This document shows, piece after piece, positions 3,445 through 43,927 of a DNA stretch of 64,000 nt (positions are counted from its first letter, which is position 1; the number at the start of each line of letters is the position of its first letter). The position numbers and the translations under genes were made by a program. Origin of the DNA: an uncultured Bacillota bacterium (GTDB taxonomy: Bacteria > Bacillota_I > Bacilli_A > RFN20 > CAG-826); the NCBI GenBank assembly GCA_949293555.1, contig CASFDV010000001.1:12590-76589 (forward strand). Reading direction: 5' to 3'. The notes below the pieces were generated by a model. That model saw nothing but the letters and a program-made list of their open reading frames with translations. It did no database searches and was not told where the DNA came from.

Positions 3445-3521
3445 TGGTTGCGGGGGATGGATTTGAACCACCGGCCTTCAGGTTATGGGCCTGACGAGCT
3501 ACCAGGCTGCTCTACCCCGCG
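3445..3521 (-). tRNA. tRNA-Met (CAT), initiator type
   Basis: Reverse complement is CGCGGGGTAGAGCAGCCTGGTAGCTCGTCAGGCCCATAACCTGAAGGCCGGTGGTTCAAATCCATCCCCCGCAACCA. It has a C1:A72 mismatch at the top of the acceptor stem, a CAT anticodon, close similarity to E. coli tRNA-fMet, and an encoded CCA. Confidence 0.85.
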
Positions 3522-9246: not shown

Positions 9247-9337
9247 TGGCGGAGGCAGGGAGATTCGAACTCCCGCCGGGCAAGGACCCGCTTCCGGTTT
9301 TCAAGACCGGCCCCTTCAGCCGCTTGGGTATGCCTCC
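9247..9337 (-). tRNA. tRNA-Ser (TGA)
   Basis: Reverse complement is GGAGGCATACCCAAGCGGCTGAAGGGGCCGGTCTTGAAAACCGGAAGCGGGTCCTTGCCCGGCGGGAGTTCGAATCTCCCTGCCTCCGCCA. Long variable arm, TGA anticodon, similar to E. coli serT. Confidence 0.85.
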
Positions 9338-18829: not shown

Positions 18830-18906
18830 TGGTGGCTGAGGAGGGACTTGAACCCCCGACCTGTCGGGTATGAACCGATCGCTCTGACCAGCTGGGCTAC
18901 TCAGCC
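18830..18906 (-). tRNA. tRNA-Met (CAT), elongator type
   Basis: Reverse complement is GGCTGAGTAGCCCAGCTGGTCAGAGCGATCGGTTCATACCCGACAGGTCGGGGGTTCAAGTCCCTCCTCAGCCACCA. Resembles E. coli metT. G1:C72 is paired, so it is not an initiator. Confidence 0.75.
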
Positions 18907-18923
18907 ATCCGCGGGCATCTTCC

Positions 18924-18998
18924 TGGTGGAGCATAGGGGTCTCGAACCCCCGACCCCCTGCTTGCAAAGCAGGTGCTCTACCGCTGAGCTAATGCCCC
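18924..18998 (-). tRNA. tRNA-Ala (TGC)
   Basis: Reverse complement is GGGGCATTAGCTCAGCGGTAGAGCACCTGCTTTGCAAGCAGGGGGTCGGGGGTTCGAGACCCCTATGCTCCACCA. G3:U70 identity pair, TGC anticodon. Confidence 0.85.
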
Positions 18999-22479: not shown

Positions 22480-22949
22480 ATGATGATGTCAGGGCCGCTT
22501 TGGGAACCGAGGGCCCCATCCTCCTTGGCGAACTCCACGCGGACGTGGTTATAGGCGCAGACGATCGGACGCCTCACGTCCATCGTGTAGCCGAGGCCGA
22601 CGCAGTACTGGGAAGGGCATCCCGACTCGAGGACGGCGACCCCTTCCGCAGAAAGGGCGAGGGTCATCGGGGTCATCGCCCCCTGGATGCGGTACGCCTT
22701 AAGGGCCTCTTCCCCATAAGGGGACGGATCCACTTCTTGCACGTCTTTCGAAAGGACTTTGGATAAAGAAGGCTCCTCCAGATTCAAGGAAAGAAGCCTC
22801 TCTTCGTCCCGATAGACGATGGCTTCTTCGAAATCGCCCTCAGGAGCGAGGATCGCACCGATCGTTCCTCCGAGGAGGGCGAGGAAGAGCGCTAGGAAAA
22901 GGACGATGTCCCCTAGATGCTTCCTGAGGCCCTCCTTGAGGGCCATCAC
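22476..22949 (-). CDS. NusG domain II-containing protein (DUF1312-like), membrane-anchored
   Basis: N-terminal TM helix then a small beta domain with CPSQYCV...RPIVCAYNHVRVEF, matching the NusG_II family usually found between apbE and the Gx transporter. Confidence 0.5.
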   Translation of the reverse strand: MMALKEGLRKHLGDIVLFLALFLALLGGTIGAILAPEGDFEEAIVYRDEERLLSLNLEEPSLSKVLSKDVQEVDPSPYGEEALKAYRIQGAMTPMTLALSAEGVAVLESGCPSQYCVGLGYTMDVRRPIVCAYNHVRVEFAKEDGALGSQSGPDIII

Positions 22950-24034
22950 TTCACCTCTTCAAGAGGGAAGCCTTCGCTTTGATAGACGAAGGGATCCTCC
23001 CTTCTCTCGTCATAGAGGAACATTTCGTATCCCATCCCTTCGATTTCCGCAATCTTGGCCTCCTCCCCCCTCATGAGAAGGTAGGTGCTGAGGACATCGC
23101 ACCAGCCGGCATCATCCCCGATCACAACCGCGGTGGTCAAAGCGGGGACGGCGCTCCCGTCCATGGGATCGACGACATGGGAATACAAGGTCCCGGTCGT
23201 CTCGTCGACCTTGTGCTGGAGGGTGGTCGCGCTCGTCCCGACGGAACGGTCTCGGACCCGGAAGCCGTACCCTTCCACGTCGGCGAGTCCGATCAGGAAA
23301 GTCCCGTCCTCGGCAAGGGGGTTCGTCCCGAAAGAGAGGGAACTCCCGCCTGCGTTGAGGAGGAAGTAGCGGTTTCCTTCTTCAAGAAGACGTTCCCGCA
23401 CTCTCGCGAGAGCGTACCCCTTCCCCATCGCTCCGAAGTCAAGAAGGGCGTCCCCTGCCTTCGTCACATATGCGGCCCCCTCACCTACGGAAAGGGCAAG
23501 GCTGCTTCCGTGGATTCTGTCGACTTCCGCGGATATCTCTTCCTTCGTCGGAAGCCGGGCGTCCTCCCCCTCGTTATTTACCCAGAGGTCCTTCCAAAGG
23601 TTCGCGAGCCCCCCGGAAAGGATGTCGATCGCGCCCTCGGTGAAGTCCTTGGCCTCTTCGGCGAATTCCAGAAGGCCTTGGAAGAAGCCATCGAGAGGAA
23701 ACGTTCCTTCTTCCTCGCTCAAGAGGAGCGCGGTCGTCTTCCCCTGCATGTCGCCCCAGCGAAGGTCTGTCTCCATGTAATGCGACATGTGCGCGAAAGA
23801 ATCGGAAATTTCCTCGTAAAGGCCATCTTCCGCCTTTCCTTTCTCATGGAAGAAGCGGAATTCTGAGAAGGCGCCGAAGGAAAGGTAATCGAAGACAGAC
23901 GAAGCGGTCCACTCCTTCCCGACCCAGTCGTTCCCGCTGCCCGTGGACTGTTGGGAGGTGGAGGAAGAGCTGCCTCCCGGAATCTCGCAAGCGAGGAGAA
24001 GCGGCACGAAAAGAAGGGCAAGGGACTTTTTCAT
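22946..24034 (-). CDS. apbE: FAD:protein FMN transferase (flavin transferase ApbE), lipoprotein
   Basis: Start at internal ATG 24034: MKKSLALLFVPLLLAC lipobox. ApbE fold motifs (...GAMGKGYALARV..., ...VIGDDAGWCDVLST...). Confidence 0.8.
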   Translation of the reverse strand: MKKSLALLFVPLLLACEIPGGSSSSTSQQSTGSGNDWVGKEWTASSVFDYLSFGAFSEFRFFHEKGKAEDGLYEEISDSFAHMSHYMETDLRWGDMQGKTTALLLSEEEGTFPLDGFFQGLLEFAEEAKDFTEGAIDILSGGLANLWKDLWVNNEGEDARLPTKEEISAEVDRIHGSSLALSVGEGAAYVTKAGDALLDFGAMGKGYALARVRERLLEEGNRYFLLNAGGSSLSFGTNPLAEDGTFLIGLADVEGYGFRVRDRSVGTSATTLQHKVDETTGTLYSHVVDPMDGSAVPALTTAVVIGDDAGWCDVLSTYLLMRGEEAKIAEIEGMGYEMFLYDERREDPFVYQSEGFPLEEVK

Positions 24035-24094
24035 ACGGCGGATTCTAGATTGTCCTGGCTTGTTTCTCAACGGAGGGCGGGAATGGGGAGGAAA

Positions 24095-24130
24095 AGGCAA
24101 AGAAAAAGGCCTCCCTTCCGGAAGGCCTCC
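24095..24130 (-). terminator. intrinsic terminator between rnfB and apbE
   Basis: Minus-strand RNA forms a GGAGGCCUUCCGGAAGGGAGGCC hairpin followed by UUUUUCUUUGCCUUUU. Confidence 0.45.
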
Positions 24131-24706: not shown

Positions 24707-25291
24707 CTAGGCGATGCCCTGGAGCCCCATGAAGGCGAGCGCCATGAGGGCGGCGGTCACCATCGCGATGGGGATGCCCTTGAGGGCGCGGGGGGTCTCG
24801 GCGCTCTCCAGCCTCTCGCGGATGAGGGCGAAGAGGACGATCACGAGGAGGTAGCCGAGCGAAGTCCCGATCGCGTTCCCCATCGAGCTCAGGAAGTCGA
24901 GCCCCTGGTCGGTGTTCCCCTGGGCGACCCCGAGGACCGCGCAGTTGGTGGTGATGAGGGGGAGGTAGATCCCCAGTCCCTTGTAGAGCGCGGGCGAGGT
25001 CTTCTTGACGAAGATCCCCACGAGCTGCACGAGGGAGGCAATGACGAGGATGTAGACGATGGTGTCGAGGAACTCCATCTTCGCCGGGACGAGGACGTAG
25101 TTATATAGAGGCCAGCAGACGAGGCTCGCCAGCACGATGACGAAGGTCACCGCGAGGCCCATCGAGAAGGCCGGCTTGACCTTGCTCCCGGTCCCGAGGA
25201 AGCTGCAGATCCCGTAGAAACGGGCGAGGACGACGTTGTCGATGAGAGAGCTCGTCAGTACGGCGAGGAGGAAGGCGACGATGTATTCCAT
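24707..25291 (-). CDS. rnfA: Rnf electron transport complex subunit A
   Basis: ...KTSPALYKGLGIYLPLITTNCAVLGVAQ...LIRERL...AFMGLQG, canonical RnfA/NqrE. Confidence 0.85.
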   Translation of the reverse strand: MEYIVAFLLAVLTSSLIDNVVLARFYGICSFLGTGSKVKPAFSMGLAVTFVIVLASLVCWPLYNYVLVPAKMEFLDTIVYILVIASLVQLVGIFVKKTSPALYKGLGIYLPLITTNCAVLGVAQGNTDQGLDFLSSMGNAIGTSLGYLLVIVLFALIRERLESAETPRALKGIPIAMVTAALMALAFMGLQGIA

Positions 25292-25294
25292 GGG

Positions 25295-26020
25295 CTAGTT
25301 CGCTCCTTCCTGGGCCGCGGCCCTCTTCTTGGCGAGGAGGGCGTCCACCCTCGCCTTGTCCCTCTTATGGATGTCGATCGCGGCGATGATAGCAAGGGCG
25401 ATCCCCAGCACGAGGAAGCCCCCGATCGAACGCTGGAAGAACTCGATCGAGAGGTCGTAGACCCCGTCGACCTTCAGGAGCGGGAGCGAGTACTCCGGGA
25501 TGAAGGTGAACACCTTCCCGAAGGTGAGCTGCCCCGTCCCGAGGATCTCCCTCACCAGGGCGATGAGGCAGATGGCCCAGCCGAAGCCGATGCCGTTCCC
25601 GAGGGCGTCGAGGGCGCTGTTGAGCACCGTGTTCTTCGAGGCGTAGGCCTCGCTCCTCCCCAGCACGATGCAGTTCACGACGAGGAGGGAGAGGAAGACG
25701 CCGAGCGAGGTGTATAGCTCCGGGAGGAAGGCCTCGCAGAGCATCTTCACCACCGTGACGAAGGTGGCGATGATGACGATGTAGCAGGGCGTCGTGATCT
25801 CTTCCGGGATGAGCTTCCGGAGGAGCGAGACGCAGACGTTCGACCCCAGGAGCACCAGGGTGAAGAGTATCGCCATCCCGAAGGCGCTCTCGAAGGAGGT
25901 CGTGACGGCGAGGGCCGGGCAGAAGCCCAGGAGGGAGACGAAGAGGGGGTTGGCCTTCCAGATTCCGGAGACGAAGGCCTCCTTCCTCTCTCCCCGCATG
26001 TCGATAGCCTTGTCCGCCAT
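25295..26020 (-). CDS. rnfE: Rnf electron transport complex subunit E
   Basis: ...ANPLFVSLLGFCPALAVTTS...LLVVNCIVLGRSEAYA..., canonical RnfE/NqrD. Confidence 0.85.
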   Translation of the reverse strand: MADKAIDMRGERKEAFVSGIWKANPLFVSLLGFCPALAVTTSFESAFGMAILFTLVLLGSNVCVSLLRKLIPEEITTPCYIVIIATFVTVVKMLCEAFLPELYTSLGVFLSLLVVNCIVLGRSEAYASKNTVLNSALDALGNGIGFGWAICLIALVREILGTGQLTFGKVFTFIPEYSLPLLKVDGVYDLSIEFFQRSIGGFLVLGIALAIIAAIDIHKRDKARVDALLAKKRAAAQEGAN

Positions 26021-26023
26021 ATC

Positions 26024-29000
26024 CTAGAGCGCGAGGAGCGCCTCCACCTCGGCGGGGACGTCGCCAAGGTAGTCGGCCTGGGCGTCCTCGATCCCGGACT
26101 CGATCCATCCGAGCTCGGAGGCGATGGGGCTCTCCGAAGGAATCTCCGGGATGGCCTTGCTGGAGTTCAGTTGCTCCACCCATGTGGTGAGGGCAGTCAG
26201 GTTCTCGCCCTCGAGCGTCGTGTTCACGACCTCGAGCCCGATGATCTCGGCGTCCTCGCCGAGGGCGACGTAATAGAGGTTGTCATCGCCCGTGCTCCCG
26301 GCCTTGAACTCGTAGACGCGGCCGATCTCGGCCTCGCTTTCGTCAAGGGCGCTCCAGTAGCCGGTCGCCTGCCAGACGGCGGAAAGCTCGACGAAGGCGT
26401 TCCAGGAGTGGGCCTCGGGGATGAGCGCCTTGACGCTCTCGGGGATGTTCGTCGGAACGACGGGTTCCGAAGGATCGACGACCTGGTCGGGATTCGCCTC
26501 GTAGTGGGCCAATGCCTCGGCGATCGCGTCATGCGCGATCACGATGCCGACGGTCCCGCTCGAGGGCTCGTAGCCATCGGTGTCCTCGTAGGAGCCGCCT
26601 CCGTTCACCGACTCGATGTATCCGTCCGTCCCGTCCGGACGGCTCTGCTCGTTGACGAGGGCGACGACCTTGCCGATGGTGCCGTCGGCGTTCACGCCGA
26701 TGAGGAGCTGGAGGTCGCCCCACTTTCCGCCGACGTTCGTCGTGTTCGTGAGGTAGCCCCTTCCGAGCACCTCGCCGGACTCGTTCTTCACCTCGCGGTA
26801 GGAGTGGAGGTAGGTCCCGCCTTCGACTTTCTGGGAGGAGCTGACGGAATAGGAGCCATCCCAGAGGGCGAGGTAGGGAGACTCGACGGTCTCCTTCTCA
26901 TAGGCGAGGGCCGCGTCGATGTCCGCGGCGATCTGATAGGCGGCTTGCTCGACGCCGGAAGTGGCGATGTCCTCGCGGTAGTCGGCGGTCCCGTCGTTGA
27001 TCTTGGCGATCCAGCTCTCGACGCCCGCAAGATAGGCGCTGTCCCAGTCCCCGCTCACGAGGCTGAGGGCGAAGCTCCCGTCCTGCTCCACGAGGATGAC
27101 GAGATCGTAGTCCCCGTCGCTCGCGGCGCCCGAGAGATAGTAGGAGGCGCCCTCTTCGACGCCATCCGCGTCGAGGACGCCCATGCGGGCGATGATGTTC
27201 CCTTCGTTGATGATCGCGGGCTCGCCCCAGCCTTCGGCCTCGGGGAGAGCGTCCGCCATGGCCTTCGTGATCTCGGCGGGGAGGTTCGCGACGCCGGTGT
27301 AGTCCCCGATGGCCTCGGCGATCGCGTCATGGGCGATCTCGATGCCGACGGTCCCGCTCGAGGACTCGTAGCCGAAGATGTCCTCGTAGGAGCCGCCGCC
27401 GTTGACGGACTCGATGTAGCTGTTGGTCCCGTCCGGGCGGCTCTGCTCGTTGACGAGCGCGACGATCGAGGAAATCTCGCCGTCCGGCTCGATGCCGATG
27501 AGGAGCTGGAGGTCGCCCCAGCGGCCTCCGACGTTCGTGGTGTTCGTGAGGTAGCCCCTTCCGAGCACCTCGCCGGACTCGTTCTTCACCTCGCGGTAGG
27601 AGACGATGTACTCATAATCGCCGCTGAGGGCGACTTCCTCGCCGACCGTAGCGGCGTTCCGGAATAGGCTCAGGTATTTCTCAGTCAGGTCGACGACCGT
27701 GCCGGTCGCGTAGCCCTTGGCCTCGGAGACGATGTTCCGGATGAGGGTCGCGGAGACGGTCGCCCCGGTGGTCGTGCCGCCGTCGATCGTCGCGCTCCCG
27801 CCGTTGATGGAGTCGATCCAGGCGGAGATGACCTCCTCGGTCCCGATGGGGTTCCCGCCGGAGTAGTCCTCGAGCGAGAGCCCCGTCACCTCGCCCTCGG
27901 GAGTGAGCCCGACGAGGATCGCCACATGGACGCCGTGCTGGTTCGTGCCCTCGCCGTAGTAGGCGGTCCCGAGGAGGGCGCCCCCGGCGTCCTTCACCTC
28001 GCGGGAGGCCTTGACGTACTCGCCCTCCAGGGCGGCCTCGGCACCGACCGAGGAGGCCCCCTCGAAGAGGGACTTCGCCTCGTCCTCGCCGATGACGGAC
28101 TCGACCGGGGCGGGGCCGGTGTAGTCGGCGACGGCCTCGTCGATGATGGCCTTCATGGTGATGTAGGAGGCCGTGGCGGTCGGGCCGGACTCGATGGAGC
28201 CGGTGCCGTCGTTGACGGAGTCGATCCAGGCCTGGACCCCCGTGAGGGTGCCGCCGGGGCCCATCGCGTCGCCGCTCGTCGCGGAGTAGTCCTCGAGGAA
28301 GAGCCCGGATACTTCCCCGTCGGTAGTGACGCCGACGAGGAGGGCGATGTTGACCTCGAAGGTGTTGTGGCCGGATCCGCGATAGGCGCGGCCGAGCACG
28401 TTCCCGGAGGCGTCCTTCACCTCTCGGTAGGAGCTCAGGTAGGTCTTGCCTTCGAGCGCGACCTCCTCCCCGACGGAGGAGGCGCCTTCAAAGAGGTCGA
28501 GGTACTTCTGGTCGGGGTCGACCGGCCCGGGCGGGACGTCCCCGTTCTCGTAGAGGTCGAGCGCCTCGGCGACCATCTCGCGGACGACGGAGGCGGTGTT
28601 GGTGGCGCCGGTGGTGGTGCCGCCGTCGATCGTCGCGGAGCCGTCGTTGATGGACTCGATCCACGCCTCGACGGTCGCGTTGTTGCCTCCGGTGTTGTCC
28701 GGCCCGTAGGCGACGATCTCGATGTGGGCGAGGCCGTCCGCGTCGACGCCGATGAGGAGGTCGACGGTCGCGCCGAACCCCGTGGCTCCCACCGCGTGGT
28801 ACACCTTGCCGATCTCGTTCCCGGAGCCGTCGAGGGCGCTCTTGTACGTCTCGATGTAAGTGCCGCTGGAGACCTCGGTCTCATCGCCGAAGGAGGCGGC
28901 GTCGGGGAAGCAGGCGTAATAGGCCTCGTTCTCCTTCCGATCGTTGTTCTCTCCGATGATGTCCGCGGTGAAGTAGTTCACCGTCCCGATGAGGGCGCCC

Positions 29001-29071
29001 GCCCCGCCGCCGATGAGGGCAAGGACGGCGACGACCGAGAGAACGTGCTTTGCGTCGAGCTTGATCTTCAT
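26024..29071 (-). CDS. rnfG: Rnf subunit G expanded to ~1015 aa with multiple tandem FMN-binding domains
   Basis: N-terminal signal-anchor TM plus a canonical RnfG/NqrC FMN_bind domain (..DGGTTTGATNTASVV..). Then at least five further FMN_bind-like repeats, each with a flavinylation-type [ST]G[AV][TS] motif (SGPTATAS, GGTTTGATVSAT, SSSGTVGIEIAHDAI, IATSGVEQAAY, PSSGTVGIVIAHDAI). Sits between rnfD and rnfE with ATGA start/stop overlaps. Confidence 0.8.
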   Translation of the reverse strand: MKIKLDAKHVLSVVAVLALIGGGAGALIGTVNYFTADIIGENNDRKENEAYYACFPDAASFGDETEVSSGTYIETYKSALDGSGNEIGKVYHAVGATGFGATVDLLIGVDADGLAHIEIVAYGPDNTGGNNATVEAWIESINDGSATIDGGTTTGATNTASVVREMVAEALDLYENGDVPPGPVDPDQKYLDLFEGASSVGEEVALEGKTYLSSYREVKDASGNVLGRAYRGSGHNTFEVNIALLVGVTTDGEVSGLFLEDYSATSGDAMGPGGTLTGVQAWIDSVNDGTGSIESGPTATASYITMKAIIDEAVADYTGPAPVESVIGEDEAKSLFEGASSVGAEAALEGEYVKASREVKDAGGALLGTAYYGEGTNQHGVHVAILVGLTPEGEVTGLSLEDYSGGNPIGTEEVISAWIDSINGGSATIDGGTTTGATVSATLIRNIVSEAKGYATGTVVDLTEKYLSLFRNAATVGEEVALSGDYEYIVSYREVKNESGEVLGRGYLTNTTNVGGRWGDLQLLIGIEPDGEISSIVALVNEQSRPDGTNSYIESVNGGGSYEDIFGYESSSGTVGIEIAHDAIAEAIGDYTGVANLPAEITKAMADALPEAEGWGEPAIINEGNIIARMGVLDADGVEEGASYYLSGAASDGDYDLVILVEQDGSFALSLVSGDWDSAYLAGVESWIAKINDGTADYREDIATSGVEQAAYQIAADIDAALAYEKETVESPYLALWDGSYSVSSSQKVEGGTYLHSYREVKNESGEVLGRGYLTNTTNVGGKWGDLQLLIGVNADGTIGKVVALVNEQSRPDGTDGYIESVNGGGSYEDTDGYEPSSGTVGIVIAHDAIAEALAHYEANPDQVVDPSEPVVPTNIPESVKALIPEAHSWNAFVELSAVWQATGYWSALDESEAEIGRVYEFKAGSTGDDNLYYVALGEDAEIIGLEVVNTTLEGENLTALTTWVEQLNSSKAIPEIPSESPIASELGWIESGIEDAQADYLGDVPAEVEALLAL
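26514..27602. repeat. intragenic tandem duplication in rnfG: 291-nt segments 26514..26804 and 27312..27602 (period 798 nt, roughly 85-90% identical)
   Basis: Nearly identical runs, e.g. GAGGTAGCCCCTTCCGAGCACCTCGCCGGACTCGTTCTTCACCTCGCGGTAGGAG in both copies. Corresponds to repeated protein blocks YREVKNESGEVLGRGYLTNTTNVGG[RK]WGDLQLLIG...SSGTVGI.IAHDAIAEA. Confidence 0.6.
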
Positions 29072-30210
29072 TTGACTTTACCTCCGAAGATGATTCCGAT
29101 GACGATGAAGAGGATGTCGGCGAGGAGGATGAGGCCGATGGTCAGCCACTTCTTCCACGTCCACCGGGACGAGGCCACCTTGTGGTGGTCGAGGACCGGG
29201 GTGATGAGGTTGGCGAGGAGGATCGAGTAGCCGACCCCCTCGGGCGCCGAGGCGAAGAGACGGATGAGGACGGTGAGGGAGGCGGCGGAGAGGGCGTAGA
29301 TGTAGCGCCCCGGCTTCGTCGCCGGCATCGTGACCGGGTCGGTCAGCATGAAGGTCGCCCCGAAGAGCATGCCTCCCGCGAGGAACTCGACCCCGATGAA
29401 GTGCCAGATGTCGAAGTCCTTGACGATGCCGCCCCCGGCGATCGCGATCCCCGCGATGGCGATGAGGGCGGTGAAGGCGCCGACGTAGGTGAAGGTCACG
29501 CGCCAGTCGATGGCCTGGCGGAGCAGGAGGTAGAGGAGGCCGACGAGGATGAGCACCTTGCACACCTCGCCCATCGCCCCCTGGGTCCTGCCGAGGAAGA
29601 GGTCGAGGAGGGAGACGTCCATGAGGGAGGAGTAGCCGCCCTGGATCGTGCCGGAGAGGACAGTGCCCCCGGTGACGACGTCGACCATCGTCCCCTCGCC
29701 CCAGGGGATGGCGGGGTAGCTCATCGTGTTCGAGAAGCTGAGGCGCGTGAGGATCATGCCCACGGCGGCGGGGTTGAAGATGTTCTGCCCGAGGCCCCCG
29801 AAGAGGAGCTTGCCGAAGATGATGCCGGCGAGCGCCCCGACGAGGACGCCCCACCAGCTCGTGGTGGGCGGGAGGCACATCCCGAAGATGAGGGCGGAGA
29901 CGGCGGGCGCCACGGCGTTCACCGGGCGGTACAGCTTCAGCGCGTGGAGGAACTTCTCCTTGAAGGGATGCTTCTCCCCGTCGTAGGGCATCCGCCCCTT
30001 GATCATGACGAAGACCCATTCGGCGATCATCATCGCCGGGACCGCGATCCCGAACACCTTGAGGGCGTCGAGGCGATAGACGATGAAGGAGAAGATGAGG
30101 AGGGGCAGGAGGGCGAGGAGGACGTCGAGCATCATCCTCGTGGCGCTGTCCTTCCTCCGGACGTGCGGGCTTGGCTCCTGGAGGAGCCGCATGGTGTTCT
30201 CTTCGCTCAT
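29068..30210 (-). CDS. rnfD: Rnf electron transport complex subunit D
   Basis: ...GGLGQNIFNPAAVGMI...FMLTDPVTMPAT... (NqrB/RnfD family with the conserved TDP flavinylation region). Confidence 0.85.
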   Translation of the reverse strand: MSEENTMRLLQEPSPHVRRKDSATRMMLDVLLALLPLLIFSFIVYRLDALKVFGIAVPAMMIAEWVFVMIKGRMPYDGEKHPFKEKFLHALKLYRPVNAVAPAVSALIFGMCLPPTTSWWGVLVGALAGIIFGKLLFGGLGQNIFNPAAVGMILTRLSFSNTMSYPAIPWGEGTMVDVVTGGTVLSGTIQGGYSSLMDVSLLDLFLGRTQGAMGEVCKVLILVGLLYLLLRQAIDWRVTFTYVGAFTALIAIAGIAIAGGGIVKDFDIWHFIGVEFLAGGMLFGATFMLTDPVTMPATKPGRYIYALSAASLTVLIRLFASAPEGVGYSILLANLITPVLDHHKVASSRWTWKKWLTIGLILLADILFIVIGIIFGGKVK

Positions 30211-31511
30211 GAAAGACGCGCGATGCGCTTTGCCCTCCTTACGTACTCGGTGACGTTGATGCGGCTCGTGCAGCTATAGGCGCAGAGCCCGCATTCGACG
30301 CAGCGCTCGGGGTGGAGCGCCTTGACCCTCTCCTTGTCCCCGCTCTTCACCGCCTGGGCGATGAGGACGGGCATGAGGTGGGTCGGGCAGCTGTAGACGC
30401 AGGAGCCGCAGCGGACGCAGCTATCGGCGGTCCACACCTCCTCGTCCATCACGAGGATGGAGGTGACGGTGGGGGTGAGGATGATGTCGTCATCTGCCAC
30501 GGTGTTCCCCATCATGGGGCCGCCCATGATGAGGCGCTTCTTCTTCCCGGAATCGGTATACCCCCCGGCAAGCGGGAGAAGGTCCCGGAGGGGGGTCCCG
30601 ATCCGCGCCTTGAGGAACTTCTGCTCGTTCACCCCGTCCCCGTGGATCTGCACGTAGCGCGAGAGGAGGGGCATCCTCTTCTTCGCGGCGAGATAAAGGG
30701 AGTAGATGGTGGCGACGTTGTACTCGAGGATCCCGAACTCCGCGGGGAGATGGCCGCTCGGGATGTCGACGCCCGTTGCGGTCTTGATGCAGGCGACCTC
30801 CCATCCCTGGGGATAGAAGTTCCAGACCGGGGCGAAGGAGATGCCGGAGCCCTCCTCGCCGGCGAGGGCGCTCGACCAGCATTCCGCGAGGTCCTTGTAG
30901 ATCCACTTCGCGCAGATCTTCCCTTCCTTGGCGCCGGTGGCCCTCATGAGGAGGCGGAGCCCCTCGATGATCTCGCGGGGGTGCTCCAGCATGAGGCGGT
31001 GGTCGCTTGCCAGCGAGGGCTCGCACTCGACCCCGTTGATGACGATGGTGTGGATCTGATGGTCCCCCTGGAGCTTCACGTAGCTCGGGAAGGAAGAGCC
31101 GCCGAGGCCGACGAGGGCCATGTCCCGCATGATGGCGAGGACATCCTCCTTCGTCAGGGCCTTGAGCTCCTCCTCGCTCCTCTCCTTGAGGGAAGGATCC
31201 GGCTCGTCCTTGAAGTCGTTCTCGATCTTCAGGAACTCGCACTCCTTCCCCGTGTGGTGGAGGTGCTTCTCGATCCCGAGGTAGGTGCCGGAGCAGGTGG
31301 ATACGATCGGCTGCTCGAAGAAGGGTCCCTTCCGGAGGCCGAGGCGCTCCCCGACCCTCACATGGTCCCCCTCCTTCACGGAAAGCTCGTAGGAGGCGCA
31401 GCGGCCGTTCGTGCCTGCGACGTAGCAGTACTTGGGCAAAGGCGCCTCTTCCAGTTCCTGATGGGCGAGGAGGACGTTGGGCAGCTCGATGTGACGTGCT
31501 TTCGCAATCAT
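30207..31511 (-). CDS. rnfC: Rnf electron transport complex subunit C (NADH-binding, 2x[4Fe-4S])
   Basis: ...GLGGSSFPSYVKL... and CVRCGSCVYSCP / CVECGLCAYSC ferredoxin motifs. RBS AAGGAAACGGG. Confidence 0.85.
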   Translation of the reverse strand: MIAKARHIELPNVLLAHQELEEAPLPKYCYVAGTNGRCASYELSVKEGDHVRVGERLGLRKGPFFEQPIVSTCSGTYLGIEKHLHHTGKECEFLKIENDFKDEPDPSLKERSEEELKALTKEDVLAIMRDMALVGLGGSSFPSYVKLQGDHQIHTIVINGVECEPSLASDHRLMLEHPREIIEGLRLLMRATGAKEGKICAKWIYKDLAECWSSALAGEEGSGISFAPVWNFYPQGWEVACIKTATGVDIPSGHLPAEFGILEYNVATIYSLYLAAKKRMPLLSRYVQIHGDGVNEQKFLKARIGTPLRDLLPLAGGYTDSGKKKRLIMGGPMMGNTVADDDIILTPTVTSILVMDEEVWTADSCVRCGSCVYSCPTHLMPVLIAQAVKSGDKERVKALHPERCVECGLCAYSCTSRINVTEYVRRAKRIARLS

Positions 31512-40060: not shown

Positions 40061-42463
40061 CTAGGAGACGACGACGTTCACGATCTTCCCCGGGACGTAG
40101 ACGAACTTCCGGAGGATCTTCCCTTCGAGGAAGGGCTTCGCCTTCTCGCTCCGGAAGGCGGCCTCCCTAGCCTCCTCCTCGGAAGCGTCCTTCCTGAGGA
40201 GAAGGACGTCCCGGAGCTTCCCGTTCACCTGGAGGGCGACCTTGACCTCCTCGACGGCGAGGGCCTTCTCGTCGTAGGAAGGCCACTTCTCGTAGGCGAT
40301 CGTCCCATCGTGCCCGAGCCTCTCCCACATCTCCTCCCCCGCGAAGGGGCAGACGCAGGAGAAGATCTTCGCGAAGCCCTCGAGGTAAGGGCGGTAGAGG
40401 CTCCTGGCCTTGTAGCACTCGTTCACGAACACCATCATCGAGGAAATGCCGGTGTTGAAGTCGAGGGACTCGAAGTCCTCCGTGCACTTCTTCACCATCT
40501 GGTGGTAGGCCTTGCTGAGCTCCCCGGAGTCCTCCTCGCTCCAGCGGGCCCGTTCCTCTTCCCCGTCGACGAGGCGGAAGGCGCGCTCGATGAAGCGGCG
40601 CGCTCCCCGGAGGCCTTCCGTGGACCACGGCTTGCTGTCGGAAAGGGGGCCGGCGAACATCTCGAAGAGCCGGAGGGAGTCCGCGCCCGTGGTCTCGACG
40701 ATCTCGTCGGGGTTCACGACGTTCCCCCGGGACTTGCTCATCTTCTCGCCGTTCGCCCCGAGGATCATCCCCTGGTGGAAGAGGCGCTGGAAAGGCTCCT
40801 CAGAGGAAAGGATGCCGATGTCATGGAGGAACTTGTGCCAGAAGCGGGCGTAGAGGAGGTGGAGGACGGCGTGCTCCTGGCCTCCGATGTAAAGGTCGAC
40901 CGGGAGCCAGTGGTCGAGGAGCTCCTTCTCCCCGATGGCGTTCTCGTTATGGGGGTCGATGTAGCGGATGTAGTACCAGCAGGAGCCCGCCCACTGGGGC
41001 ATGGTGTTCGTCTCCCTCTCCCCTTTCTTCCCGCCGATCTCGACGTGGAGCCAGGAGTCCGGGGCCTTGGAAAGGGGCGGCTTCCCGTCCTTCCGGGGCG
41101 TGTAGTCGCCGAGCTCGGGGAGGACCAGGGGTAGCTCCTCGTCCGGGAGGATCCTCTCCTCCCCGTCCTCGGTCCGGACGACGGGGATCGGCTCGCCCCA
41201 GTAGCGCTGCCTGGAGAAGAGCCAGTCGCGGAGCTTGTAGTTCACCTTCTCCTCGCCGGCGCCTAGCTCGATGAGCTTCCGCGCGATGACCTTCTTCGCC
41301 TCGGCGATGAGAAGCCCGTCGGCCTCTTCCGAATGGATGTGGGGGGCGTCCTCCTCCATCGCATGCTCGGAGACGTCGCCTTCGAGGACCTGGACGATGG
41401 GGAGCCCGTGGGCTTTCGCGAACTCGTAGTCCCTCTGGTCGTGGGCGGGGACCGCCATGACGGCGCCCGTGCCGTAGGAGCCGAGGACATAGTCGGCGAC
41501 GTAGACCGGGACTTCCTTCCCGTTGATGGGGTTGATCGCGGAAATCCCCAGCAGAACCCCCGTCTTTTCCTTGGAAAGCGCGGTTCTTGCGAGGTCGCTC
41601 TTCTTGGCGCTCTCCTTGACGTAGCGCTCCACCTCCTCGCGGCATTCCGGGGCGGCGAGGCGTTCCACGAGGGGGTGCTCCGGGGCGAGGCAGCAGTAGG
41701 TGCAGCCGTAGAGGGTGTCGACCCTGGTGGTGTAGACGCGGAAGCTCTCCTCGCTCCCCTTGATCTTGAAAAGGATCTCGACGCCCGTGGAGCGCCCGAT
41801 CCAGTTCTTCTGCATCTCGATCGTGCTCCGCGGCCAGTCGAGTCCCTCGAGGTCTTTCTCGAGCCGGTCGGCGTAGCGCGTGATCCTGAGCATCCACTGG
41901 CGCATCGGGATCCTCACGACGGGGTAGCCGCCGCGCTCGCTCTTCCCGTCGATCACCTCCTCGTTGGCGAGGACGGTCCCGAGCTCGGGGCAGAAGTTCA
42001 CGGGGACGTCGGCGAGGTAGGCGAGGTCATGCTCGAAAAGGCGGCAGAAGATCCACTGCGTCCACTTGTAGTAGGAAGGGTCGATAGTCGAGATCTCGCG
42101 GTCCCAGTCGATCGACATCCCGAGCGACTTGATCTGCTCGCGGAAATGGTCGATGTTCCTTCTCGTCGAGATCTCGGGGTGCTCGTTATGCTCGATGGCG
42201 TACTGCTCGGCGGGGAGCCCGAAGGCGTCCCAGCCCATCGGATGGAGGACGTTATAGCCCTGCATCCTCTTCATGCGCGCGACGATGTCGCTCGCGGTGT
42301 AGCCCTCCGGGTGCCCGACGTGGAGCCCTTGCCCGGAAGGAAAGGGAAACATGTCGAGCGCGTAGAACTTCGGCTTCGAGAAGTCATGCGTGTCGCAGCG
42401 GAAGGTCTTCTCCTCCTCCCAGCGCTTCCTCCACTTCCTCTCGATCGCCTTGTGGTCGTACAT
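40061..42463 (-). CDS. leuS: leucyl-tRNA synthetase
   Basis: ...[17 protein letters not shown]... HIGH motif, ...KMSKSRGN... KMSKS motif, 800 aa. Confidence 0.9.
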
Positions 42464-42490: not shown

Positions 42491-43927
42491 CTACTTCCTC
42501 GCGAGAAGCTTCTTGTACTCGGCGAGATATCCGCGGGCGGAGGTCCGCCAGCTGTGGTCCCGTCCCATCGCGGCGCGGGCCACCTTGTAGTAGCCCTCCT
42601 GGTTCCGGTATAGCTCCTCCGCGCGATAGACGGCGTAGTCGAGGCCTTCGACATTATAGTCGCGGAAGGCGAGGCCGTCCTCGTTCCCGGTGATCATGCC
42701 GTCGTAGGGATGGACGGTGTCGGCGAGTCCCCCGGTCATGCGCACGATCGGGAGCGTCCCGTAGCGCTGGCTGATCATCTGGCTGAGCCCGCATGGCTCG
42801 AAGAGGGAGGGCATCATGAAGAAGTCGGAGCCGGCGTAGATCTTGTGGGCGAGCGCGTCGTTATAGCCGATGTAGATGCCGCAGGTGTCCGGGTACTGGC
42901 TCCGGAGCTCCTCGAAGCGCTGCTCGAGCTCGTACTCCCCGGAGCCAAGGAGGACGAAGTTCCCGCCCTTGGAGAGGATGGAGCGGGCCTCCGGGAGGAG
43001 GATGTCGATCCCCTTCTGCCACGTGAGGCGGCTCACGATCCCGTAGACGGGGCCGCCGTACCAGTGGAGTCCGTACGCCTTCAGGAGGTCGCTCTGGTTG
43101 AGGTGCTTCCCCTCCTCGAGGGTCTCCTTCCCGTACGTCTTCGCGATGCGGGTGTCCTTCTCGGGGTTCCACTCGCCGTAGTCGATCCCGTTGAGGATCC
43201 CGACGAAGTCGTCCCTCCGGTACTCGAGGACGCCGTCGAGGCCCTGCCCCCCGTCCCTGGTGAGGAGCTCCTCCCGGTGGGTGGGCGAGACGGTGGTGAT
43301 GAGGTCGCTATAGACGATGCCGCTCTTGAGGGTGGAGAACATCCCCTCGAAGCGCACCTTCCCGATGTCGAAGAGGTGGTCGGGGAGGTTGAAGAAGTCG
43401 GTGAGGAAGTAGCGGTCCAGCATCCCCTTGAAGGCGGGGTTATGGATGGTGAGGACGAAGCGGATCCCCTTGTAGGCGTCGTCGTTGTAGTAGTTCTCGC
43501 TCACGAGGGTCGGGACGATCGCCGACTGCCAGTCGTGGACGTGGACGACGTCGGGCTTCGATTCGAGGTGGCGGAGGGCCTCGCTTGCGGCCAAAGCGAA
43601 GAAGGCGAAGCGCTCCCCGTCGTCCATGTAGCCGTACATCCGCTCGCGCCGGAAGTAGTAGTCGTTGGCGACGAGGTAGTAGAGGATCCCGTCCGCCTCG
43701 GCCTTGTAGAGGGTGGTCCTCTGGTCGCGCCAGGACATGCGGACGTCGAACTCCGCGACCTTCTCGGCGTCGATCCCCTTGGCGAGGCTCGCCTGGTAGA
43801 AGGGGACGATGATCGCCACGTTCTGGCGGAGGCCCTTGAGGGCCTTGGAGAGGGAGTAGACGACGTCGGCGAGGCCCCCGCTCTTGGAGAAGGGAAGGGC
43901 TTCGCTAGAGATCATCGCGATGTTCAT
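42491..43927 (-). CDS. glgA: glycogen synthase (ADP-glucose type)
   Basis: MNIAMISSEALPFSKSGGLADVVYSLSKAL... KxGGL motif. Confidence 0.9.
   Translation of the reverse strand: MNIAMISSEALPFSKSGGLADVVYSLSKALKGLRQNVAIIVPFYQASLAKGIDAEKVAEFDVRMSWRDQRTTLYKAEADGILYYLVANDYYFRRERMYGYMDDGERFAFFALAASEALRHLESKPDVVHVHDWQSAIVPTLVSENYYNDDAYKGIRFVLTIHNPAFKGMLDRYFLTDFFNLPDHLFDIGKVRFEGMFSTLKSGIVYSDLITTVSPTHREELLTRDGGQGLDGVLEYRRDDFVGILNGIDYGEWNPEKDTRIAKTYGKETLEEGKHLNQSDLLKAYGLHWYGGPVYGIVSRLTWQKGIDILLPEARSILSKGGNFVLLGSGEYELEQRFEELRSQYPDTCGIYIGYNDALAHKIYAGSDFFMMPSLFEPCGLSQMISQRYGTLPIVRMTGGLADTVHPYDGMITGNEDGLAFRDYNVEGLDYAVYRAEELYRNQEGYYKVARAAMGRDHSWRTSARGYLAEYKKLLARK

Follow-up and report, generated by a model that had tools for sequence, protein, structure and literature searches.

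The 64,000-nucleotide (nt) stretch analysed here, which we call the window throughout, carries an rnfG gene in which two segments from non-adjacent domains of the encoded protein are unusually alike. We read this similarity as the trace of ectopic gene conversion within the gene of a seven-domain RnfG, over a tract of about 290 nt that was most likely copied from the fourth domain (D4) into the sixth (D6) with the number of domains unchanged, and we put the probability of this reading at about 80%. The reading is based on the sharp edges of the similar segment, on a different core sequence (hereafter x-type) at the same place in relatives, on a conflict between the trees of core and flanks, on an excess of synonymous similarity and on microhomology at the junctions. 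The gene is an intact open reading frame (ORF) of 1015 amino acids (aa) at window positions 26024-29071 on the minus strand, and a domain hidden Markov model finds seven envelopes in it, that is, seven homologous RnfG-like domains (D1-D7) of about 130-148 aa each. A first-pass annotation of the window, which had already recognised a multi-domain protein, reported two 291-nt stretches 798 nt apart and 85-90% identical; the coordinates, length, spacing and identity were accurate. It explained them as a recent tandem duplication of about 800 bp within an ongoing expansion of domain number, an explanation that we do not retain.

The converted (recipient) tract is the core of D6 (26514-26803, minus strand; aa 757-853, gene nt 2269-2558), where D4-type sequence lies between D6-type flanks. 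The donor-type copy is the core of D4 (27312-27601, minus strand; aa 491-587, gene nt 1471-1760). Aligned with blastn, the two cores are 87.2% identical over 290 nt, in frame and 798 nt apart, and a repeat finder returned 300 nt at 86% identity with the same spacing of 798 (26501-26800 against 27299-27598). The best 90-nt window is identical at 84 of 90 positions, compared with 32.5 +/- 4.7 for all in-frame 90-nt self-comparisons of the gene, whose GC content at third codon positions (GC3) is 0.92. The similarity between D4 and D6 is far beyond chance and the two are by far the most similar pair within the gene, just as the first reading of the sequence had it. Counted in register per 30 nt, identity runs 9, then 30, 30, 24, 24, 20, 27, 25, 25, 28 and 24, then 13, and the remaining roughly 500 of the 798 nt are at background identity. 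The tract starts on its 5' side in a conserved TCCTACCGCGAGGTG (SYREV) and ends on its 3' side in the motif GC(C/G)GAGGC, which encodes (A/G)EA; this junction microhomology is common to the D4, D6 and x-type cores. Differences between the D4 and D6 cores fall mostly in two loop regions, and the 5' 62 nt of the D6 tract (26742-26803, minus strand) are 100% identical to window positions 27540-27601 in D4. The N-terminal 28 residues of D4 are like those of D2 and D3 and unlike those of D6. Tandem Repeats Finder reported no long-period array in the region, which fits a dispersed, non-tandem repeat. A diversity-generating retroelement was considered and rejected: by eye, the D4/D6 mismatches are not confined to one base, although no formal count and no search for a reverse transcriptase was made.

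We compared the window allele (W) with eight homologues, for seven of which the DNA was retrieved. Alleles and loci pair as follows: P0002 is found in L003 (an ENA assembly) and L004 (a Logan contig), P0003 in L001, P0004 in L002 and L008, P0006 in L006, and P0008 in L007. Seven RnfG-like domains are present in W, P0001, P0002 and P0003, six in P0004/L002 and P0007, which have no D6, and five in P0008. D6 itself occurs in W, P0001, P0002, P0003 and L006 and is missing from P0004/L002, P0007 and P0008, as seen in the domain maps and in a gap in the L002 alignment. In P0002 and P0003 the D6 flanks are those of W (SPYLALW...GGTYLH and EALAHYE(A/Q)NPDQVVDP), and the core reads NTQSIPGSTDEYAGFVNGGGNY..SGGTIGV instead. 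These x-type cores of P0002 and P0003/L001 are 91% identical to each other at the nucleotide level and 61-63% identical to any D4 core. The window gene is 85-97% identical to that of P0002 throughout except in the D6 core (47-73%); the D6 core of W reaches only 47-73% with the orthologous cores of P0002 and L001, while the flanks reach 82-93%. Each version of D6 was recovered more than once, the D4-like one also in L005 and L006 and the x-type one in both L003 and L004, all of them independent assemblies of other samples. Exact-pattern scans of Joint Genome Institute (JGI) metagenome contigs for the D6 5' junction and for the conserved rnfG start gave no match.

Bootstrapped neighbour-joining trees were built from a core partition of 300 nt and a flank partition of 150 nt. 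In the core tree, D6 of W and P0001 groups with all D4 cores at 100% bootstrap support and a clade of all D6 domains receives 0%; in the flank tree, the clade of all D6 domains receives 100% and the grouping of W and P0001 D6 with D4 receives 0%. Within the tract, the proportion of synonymous differences (pS) that separates the two window copies is 0.24, versus 0.51-0.59 in the in-register flanks (Fisher's exact test, p=6e-4). Gene conversion is expected to leave trees of tract and flanks in conflict, an unconverted version in relatives and synonymous similarity within the tract, and all three were found here, the unconverted version in P0002 (L003, L004) and P0003/L001. The exchange would have been intragenic and not with the allele of another strain.

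In the course of events that we propose, homologous recombination in an ancestor of the window allele would have copied the D4 core over the D6 core. The exchange would have begun and ended in the short motifs conserved among the repeats (TCCTACCGCGAGGTG on the 5' side, GC(C/G)GAGGC on the 3' side), leaving the N- and C-terminal flanks of D6 and the intervening D5 untouched and keeping the seven domains. The converted D6 copy would later have diverged, mostly in the two loop regions, and at least one later, shorter round of homogenisation would have affected its first 62 nt. D4 orthologues differ from one another at 7-10 positions per 60 nt in this 5' stretch, so that the perfect identity of the two window copies there may reflect such a younger second round. 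At the position of the flavinylated threonine, the conversion would have replaced SGGT by SSGT.

The most probable donor is the D4 carried by an ancestor of the W/P0001/P0002 alleles, at a time when the D4 copies of W and P0002 had not yet diverged. With an additional D4 sequence (P0004, L008) in the tree, the D6 cores of W and P0001 join the D4 cores of W, P0001 and P0002 as against those of L001, L002 and P0004 (93.6% bootstrap), and the event would accordingly fall after the D4 of the first group had split from the D4 lineage of the second. Support for the D6/D4 grouping is 98.4% when nt 101-145 are left out, and the D4 cores of W, P0001 and P0002 stay monophyletic. Where W D4 carries a derived state in comparison with P0002 D4, the D6 copy is ancestral at four of five sites, which points to a donor from before the W-P0002 D4 split. 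Nor is the event very recent, contrary to what had first been supposed: the tract pS of 0.24 exceeds the 0.10-0.15 measured between W and P0002 for rnfC, rnfD, rnfE and rnfA, and by synonymous divergence the event is older than the split of the lineages compared.

Several points weigh against this reconstruction. Polarity and timing rest on neighbour-joining trees of 290 nt and eight sequences. The D6 core of W is ancestral in nt 101-144, where the D4 copies of W and P0002 are derived, and therefore more than one event would belong to its history. P0002 is a member of the donor D4 lineage and has an unconverted x-type D6 core, which calls for recombination between lineages or for the persistence of both D6 alleles. 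The exact window RnfG protein is not in the public gene index, and the window structure is taken from the assembly alone.

The ancestral states in nt 101-144 would also suit the opposite polarity, in which D6 had a D4-like core from the start and P0002 and L001 acquired their x-type core later by recombination, for example from an x-type cassette such as that at the D1 position of L006; the window repeat would then be a remnant of the older event that created D6. That x-type cores move is seen in L006/P0006, which has one at D1 with 81% identity over 139 nt to the P0002 D6 core, and a pS of 0.24 is not young. We nevertheless consider this polarity unlikely. The D6 flanks are roughly 30% identical to the D4 flanks at the aa level, and the x-type core is roughly 42-45% identical to the D4 core; flanks and core are thus about equally far from D4, which fits the x-type sequence as the native D6 core. 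Moreover, the D6 core of W falls within the D4 clade, together with the W/P0001/P0002 D4 group (93.6%), and L001, which lies outside that group, already has an x-type D6. Even the opposite polarity still needs a patch transfer, the histories of flank and core being different, and it still excludes a tandem duplication of 798 nt.

That duplication, as a recent event of unequal recombination in which a two-domain unit of about 798 nt (D4-D5) gave rise to D6-D7, has some appeal: 798 nt is an in-frame spacing of the size of two domains, and repeat number does vary, from 5 to 7 in close relatives and from 1 to 11 across the 399 representative proteins (149-1988 aa) returned by an exhaustive family-wide profile search (E<=1e-3). 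We judge it very improbable all the same. Similarity extends over only 290 of the 798 nt, in the cores of the non-adjacent D4 and D6, and the rest is background. D5 (26882-27271, minus strand; aa 601-730) lies between both similar cores and is not duplicated, and its 19.8% aa identity with D7 makes these two no closer than any other pair. D7 follows directly after D5 in the D6-less alleles P0004/L002, P0007 and P0008, and D7 therefore predates D6. The flank tree groups all D6 domains at 100%. P0002 and P0003 match the window allele in their seven domains and their D6 flanks but have a different D6 core, a comparison that speaks against an ongoing expansion of domain number. Since seven-domain relatives exist without a D4-like D6, it is the sequence that changed and not the copy number.

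The first-pass annotation had also warned that the repeat could trouble assemblers, and the relatives bear this out. In L006 (6001-9005 of ERZ16268171 scaffold_5461), rnfG is frame-shifted and split into three ORFs: the D4 core carries a 10-nt duplication (ACCTCCAGCT), and 29 nt are deleted from the D6 core. Both defects come directly after a 27-nt stretch common to the two cores, and D4 of L006 has a D6-type 5' segment. For these frame breaks, an error of short-read assembly at the repeat is the likeliest explanation and a pseudogene a less likely one. L009, a contig of 1758 nt, ends inside the D4 core. Such cases lend some weight to the idea that the window too is a chimera, in which a short-read assembler threaded D4 reads, from the same or a co-occurring strain, into the D6 position. 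However, the window ORF is intact, and the same D6 core is found at 99-100% identity between the same flanks in L005 and L006, which come from other samples. At the 5' junction, D4 and an x-type D6 have no more than about 16 identical nt in common, which would not suffice for a k-mer jump. The D6 core of the window departs by 13% from the D4 core of the same gene and, at 82-87% identity to the sampled D4 cores, matches none of them, so that a simple chimera appears unlikely; we give this explanation as a whole very little credence.

Least credible of all is an explanation with no transfer, in which strong purifying selection and extreme codon bias kept two old paralogous cores similar in their DNA: a GC3 of 0.92 does raise background synonymous identity and the differences between the copies do cluster in loops, but under the same codon bias the D6 cores of P0002 and L001 are only 61-63% identical to D4 cores, the tract pS is less than half of the flank pS, and the core and flank trees conflict.

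The seven domains follow one another on the minus strand, D1 at 28514-28933 (aa 47-186), D2 at 28085-28513 (aa 187-329), D3 at 27686-28084 (aa 330-462), the whole of D4 at 27272-27685 (aa 463-600) and, beyond D5, the whole of D6 at 26438-26881 (aa 731-878) and D7 at 26027-26437 (aa 879-1015). The protein passes the Pfam FMN_bind (PF04205) threshold with 25.6 bits (cut-off 22) only through D1, and the other six domains are sub-threshold when scanned singly. Searched against PDB sequences, a profile of 33 domain sequences matches RnfG 7zc6_G at E=6e-5, the GAT site included. Two designed proteins with tetratricopeptide-like repeats top the list of PDB profile matches; these are fragmentary 7-bit matches and were disregarded in favour of RnfG. 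An AlphaFold model was made of D6 only (mean predicted local distance difference test, pLDDT, 86.5), and its best PDB matches are the RnfG chains 9eri_G and 7zc6_G, with a Foldseek probability of 0.99 and a query template-modelling score (TMq) of 0.59-0.63. The profile match, the model matches and the position between rnfD and rnfE uphold the original naming of the gene as rnfG, and D6 has, according to the model, an RnfG-like fold. Stray weak per-domain Pfam matches (sCache_3_3, CEL_III_C, DUF6802) were treated as noise. For the whole protein, sCache_3_3 (PF17202) exceeds its threshold (32.8 versus 28.8 bits) by summing weak matches across several repeats. These cover the N-terminal beta-hairpin part of the repeats, for example at 28355-28474 on the minus strand (aa 200-239), and the score is probably either a false positive that arises from this summation or a sign of remote similarity in fold.

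The motif recognised by the flavin transferase ApbE is D-x-x-[S/T]-G-A-[S/T] (PMC12052999). In the window protein, the canonical [S/T]GA[S/T] is found only in D1 (TGAT, aa 154-157) and D3 (TGAT, aa 435-438), where the Asp lies farther upstream, by two residues, than the strict motif of seven residues has it. D2 has PTAT at the motif position, D4 and D6 have SSGT at the aligned position, which is not canonical, and a candidate threonine is lacking in D5 and D7; the x-type D6 cores of the relatives have SGGT. The designation of the protein as a multi-FMN (flavin mononucleotide) RnfG, made at first reading, is thus borne out only in part, by the motifs of D1 and D3. Two predicted sites are as many as a multi-flavinylated protein needs at the least, and an ApbE, also expected of such a protein, is encoded in the cluster.

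The D4/D6 event appears to be one of many in this gene. We calculated per-gene nucleotide identity between the window and five related loci and obtained 95-99% for rnfC, 93-99% for rnfD, 97-99% for rnfE and 96-98.5% for rnfA, versus 75-97% for rnfG and 66-80% for apbE. From these values, rnfG and apbE appear as mosaic, hypervariable islands in an otherwise conserved operon, with rnfG a cassette-like mosaic between lineages in which rnfC, rnfD, rnfE and rnfA are 93-99% identical. Synonymous divergence in the rnfG domains is 0.19-0.36, two to three times that of the neighbours, and the ratio of nonsynonymous to synonymous differences (pN/pS) is also higher. Compared with W, L001 is 93-98% identical in D1 and D7 and 50-70% in D2-D3, and L006 is about 100% identical in D3-D7 and 42-78% in D1-D2, with an x-type core at D1. 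In that locus (L006 6145-6546; P0006 aa 49-182), D1 is replaced by an x-type domain with TGGT and not TGAT. D1 is the domain expected to be the functional FMN domain of RnfG, and x-type cassettes thus occur at two positions of the gene, D1 and D6.

A second, shorter patch links D1 and D3: positions 28592-28666 and 27749-27823 (minus strand) are identical at 62 of 75 nt. It covers AWIxSINxGSATIDGGTTTGAT, which includes the canonical flavinylation motif, and class-B alleles (P0003, P0004, P0005) have GPSATYS at the motif position of D3. A conversion from D1 to D3 may have installed the canonical FMN site in D3. The 3' end of the gene varies as well, in that a C-terminal domain of about 100 aa (…EEKVASFVTESFGENAKF…YLVCSEEGTRDTEAIDAVVEALLAL) is present, partial or absent depending on the allele. 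It was observed in P0003, P0004, P0007 and P0008, whereas W (26024-26080, minus strand) and P0002 are without it and P0001 has a remnant; this series suggests nested C-terminal deletions ending in a common VEALLAL tail.

In apbE, most of the gene is 56-75% identical in nucleotides to the related loci, compared with 95-100% for the adjacent rnfA and rnfE. Its protein is 55-80% identical to related alleles, its GC3 is 0.71 versus 0.9 or more in the neighbours, and there is apparently a breakpoint in the 3' quarter of the gene. The difference between membrane subunits that are 93-99% identical and the diverged rnfG and apbE suggests selection on exposed parts. One may speculate further that the extracytoplasmic RnfG and ApbE are under diversifying selection, with domain cores shuffled as cassettes within the gene (D4 to D6, D1 to D3) and between lineages in the manner of a surface antigen or phage receptor; we regard this as possible but doubtful. 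If true, a respiratory-complex subunit would be surface-exposed and a target of phages, host immunity or competitors, and the D4/D6 patch would be one trace of it.

According to Pfam calls on the neighbouring genes, the cluster reads rnfC-D-G-E-A, with rnfG flanked by rnfD and rnfE and with apbE further downstream. Upstream of rnfG are rnfD (29068-30210; NQR2_RnfD_RnfE, E=7e-76) and rnfC (30207-31511; Complex1_51K, RnfC_N, SLBB and Fer4); downstream are rnfE (25295-26020; Rnf-Nqr, E=1e-56), rnfA (24707-25291; Rnf-Nqr, E=8e-56), a small iron-sulfur (FeS) protein and apbE (22946-24100; ApbE, E=4e-30), a lipoprotein flavin transferase. All are on the minus strand, and gene order is identical in six related loci. 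Given the lipoprotein signal peptide MKKSLALLFVPLLLAC, the true start of apbE is probably the ATG at 24034. An N-terminal hydrophobic stretch, VLSVVAVLALIGGGAGALIG (aa 10-29), was read by eye from the rnfG translation, and RnfG is predicted to be membrane-anchored and extracytoplasmic. Between a major facilitator superfamily gene and rnfC, the segment 31607-32197 (minus strand) is 78-89% identical to L001, L003 and L005 and 98-100% identical to L006, beside an rnfC of 95% or more; three small ORFs of 57, 63 and 119 aa, with no family match, are called in this segment in related loci. Elsewhere the window holds leuS (40061-42463), glgA (42491-43927), priA (55531-57720) and, on the minus strand, five tRNA genes (18662-18998, 9250-9337 and 3448-3521), three of them clustered. 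The neighbourhood is one of chromosomal housekeeping genes, which places the locus on the chromosome and not in a mobile element.

The D4/D6 repeat is therefore no sign of domain gain in RnfG and is unfit as a copy-number marker, and a homogenised patch of this kind can confuse assemblers, orthology calls and domain phylogenies. A multi-domain RnfG would instead evolve by swapping domain cores, including the segment with the site aligned to the flavinylated threonine. The motif changes that would have resulted are SGGT to SSGT in D6 and a GPSAT type to the canonical TGAT in D3. If it is these motifs that determine which domains bear FMN, one conversion step could be enough to rewire a putative extracytoplasmic electron-transfer chain.

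Multi-flavinylated RnfGs encoded in RNF clusters, and proteins with as many as 13 sites, have already been described (Meheust et al., 2021, eLife, PMC8238504). By its predicted features, the window RnfG belongs to this known class of multi-domain, multi-flavinylated RnfG. Like the multi-flavinylated RnfG and multi-FMN proteins (PMC8238504; Tong et al., 2023, PMC10339131), it takes the place of RnfG in an RNF cluster, has an apbE gene close by, is predicted to be anchored and extracytoplasmic and has several RnfG/FMN_bind-like domains in tandem; it differs from them in that the canonical motif is present in only two of its seven domains and six domains are below the FMN_bind threshold. Strain-level mosaicism and inter-domain conversion are not described in Meheust et al. 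(2021) or Tong et al. (2023). With the canonical single-domain RnfG of Acetobacterium woodii (9eri_G) and Clostridium tetanomorphum (7zc6_G), the window protein shares the fold (as modelled for D6), the operon position and the N-terminal anchor, and the TGAT of its D1 aligns to the GAT of 7zc6_G. The canonical protein has about 190-210 aa and one domain, compared with 1015 aa and seven domains here.

It is a general phenomenon that tandem domain repeats in bacterial surface or extracytoplasmic proteins undergo ectopic gene conversion and concerted evolution. The window tract resembles intragenic conversion in general in being a non-reciprocal tract of a few hundred nt, bounded by microhomology, with conflicting phylogenies of tract and flanks. 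Unlike classical conversion in adhesins and antigens, it involves non-adjacent domains of a respiratory-complex subunit and no silent donor cassettes in the window, since tblastn of all domain types against the 64 kb gave no match outside rnfG. A further comparison comes from the same gene family and operon, namely D2-D3 of P0008/L007 (L007 5550-6350, ERZ16268088), which represents a true adjacent tandem duplication or the homogenisation of a whole domain. There, period and repeat length coincide at 399 nt, and the whole unit is at least 85% identical in nucleotides and 87% identical in aa, with 93-100% in the C-terminal two-thirds. In the window, by contrast, 290 nt within a spacing of 798 nt are similar, between flanks that show no relationship.

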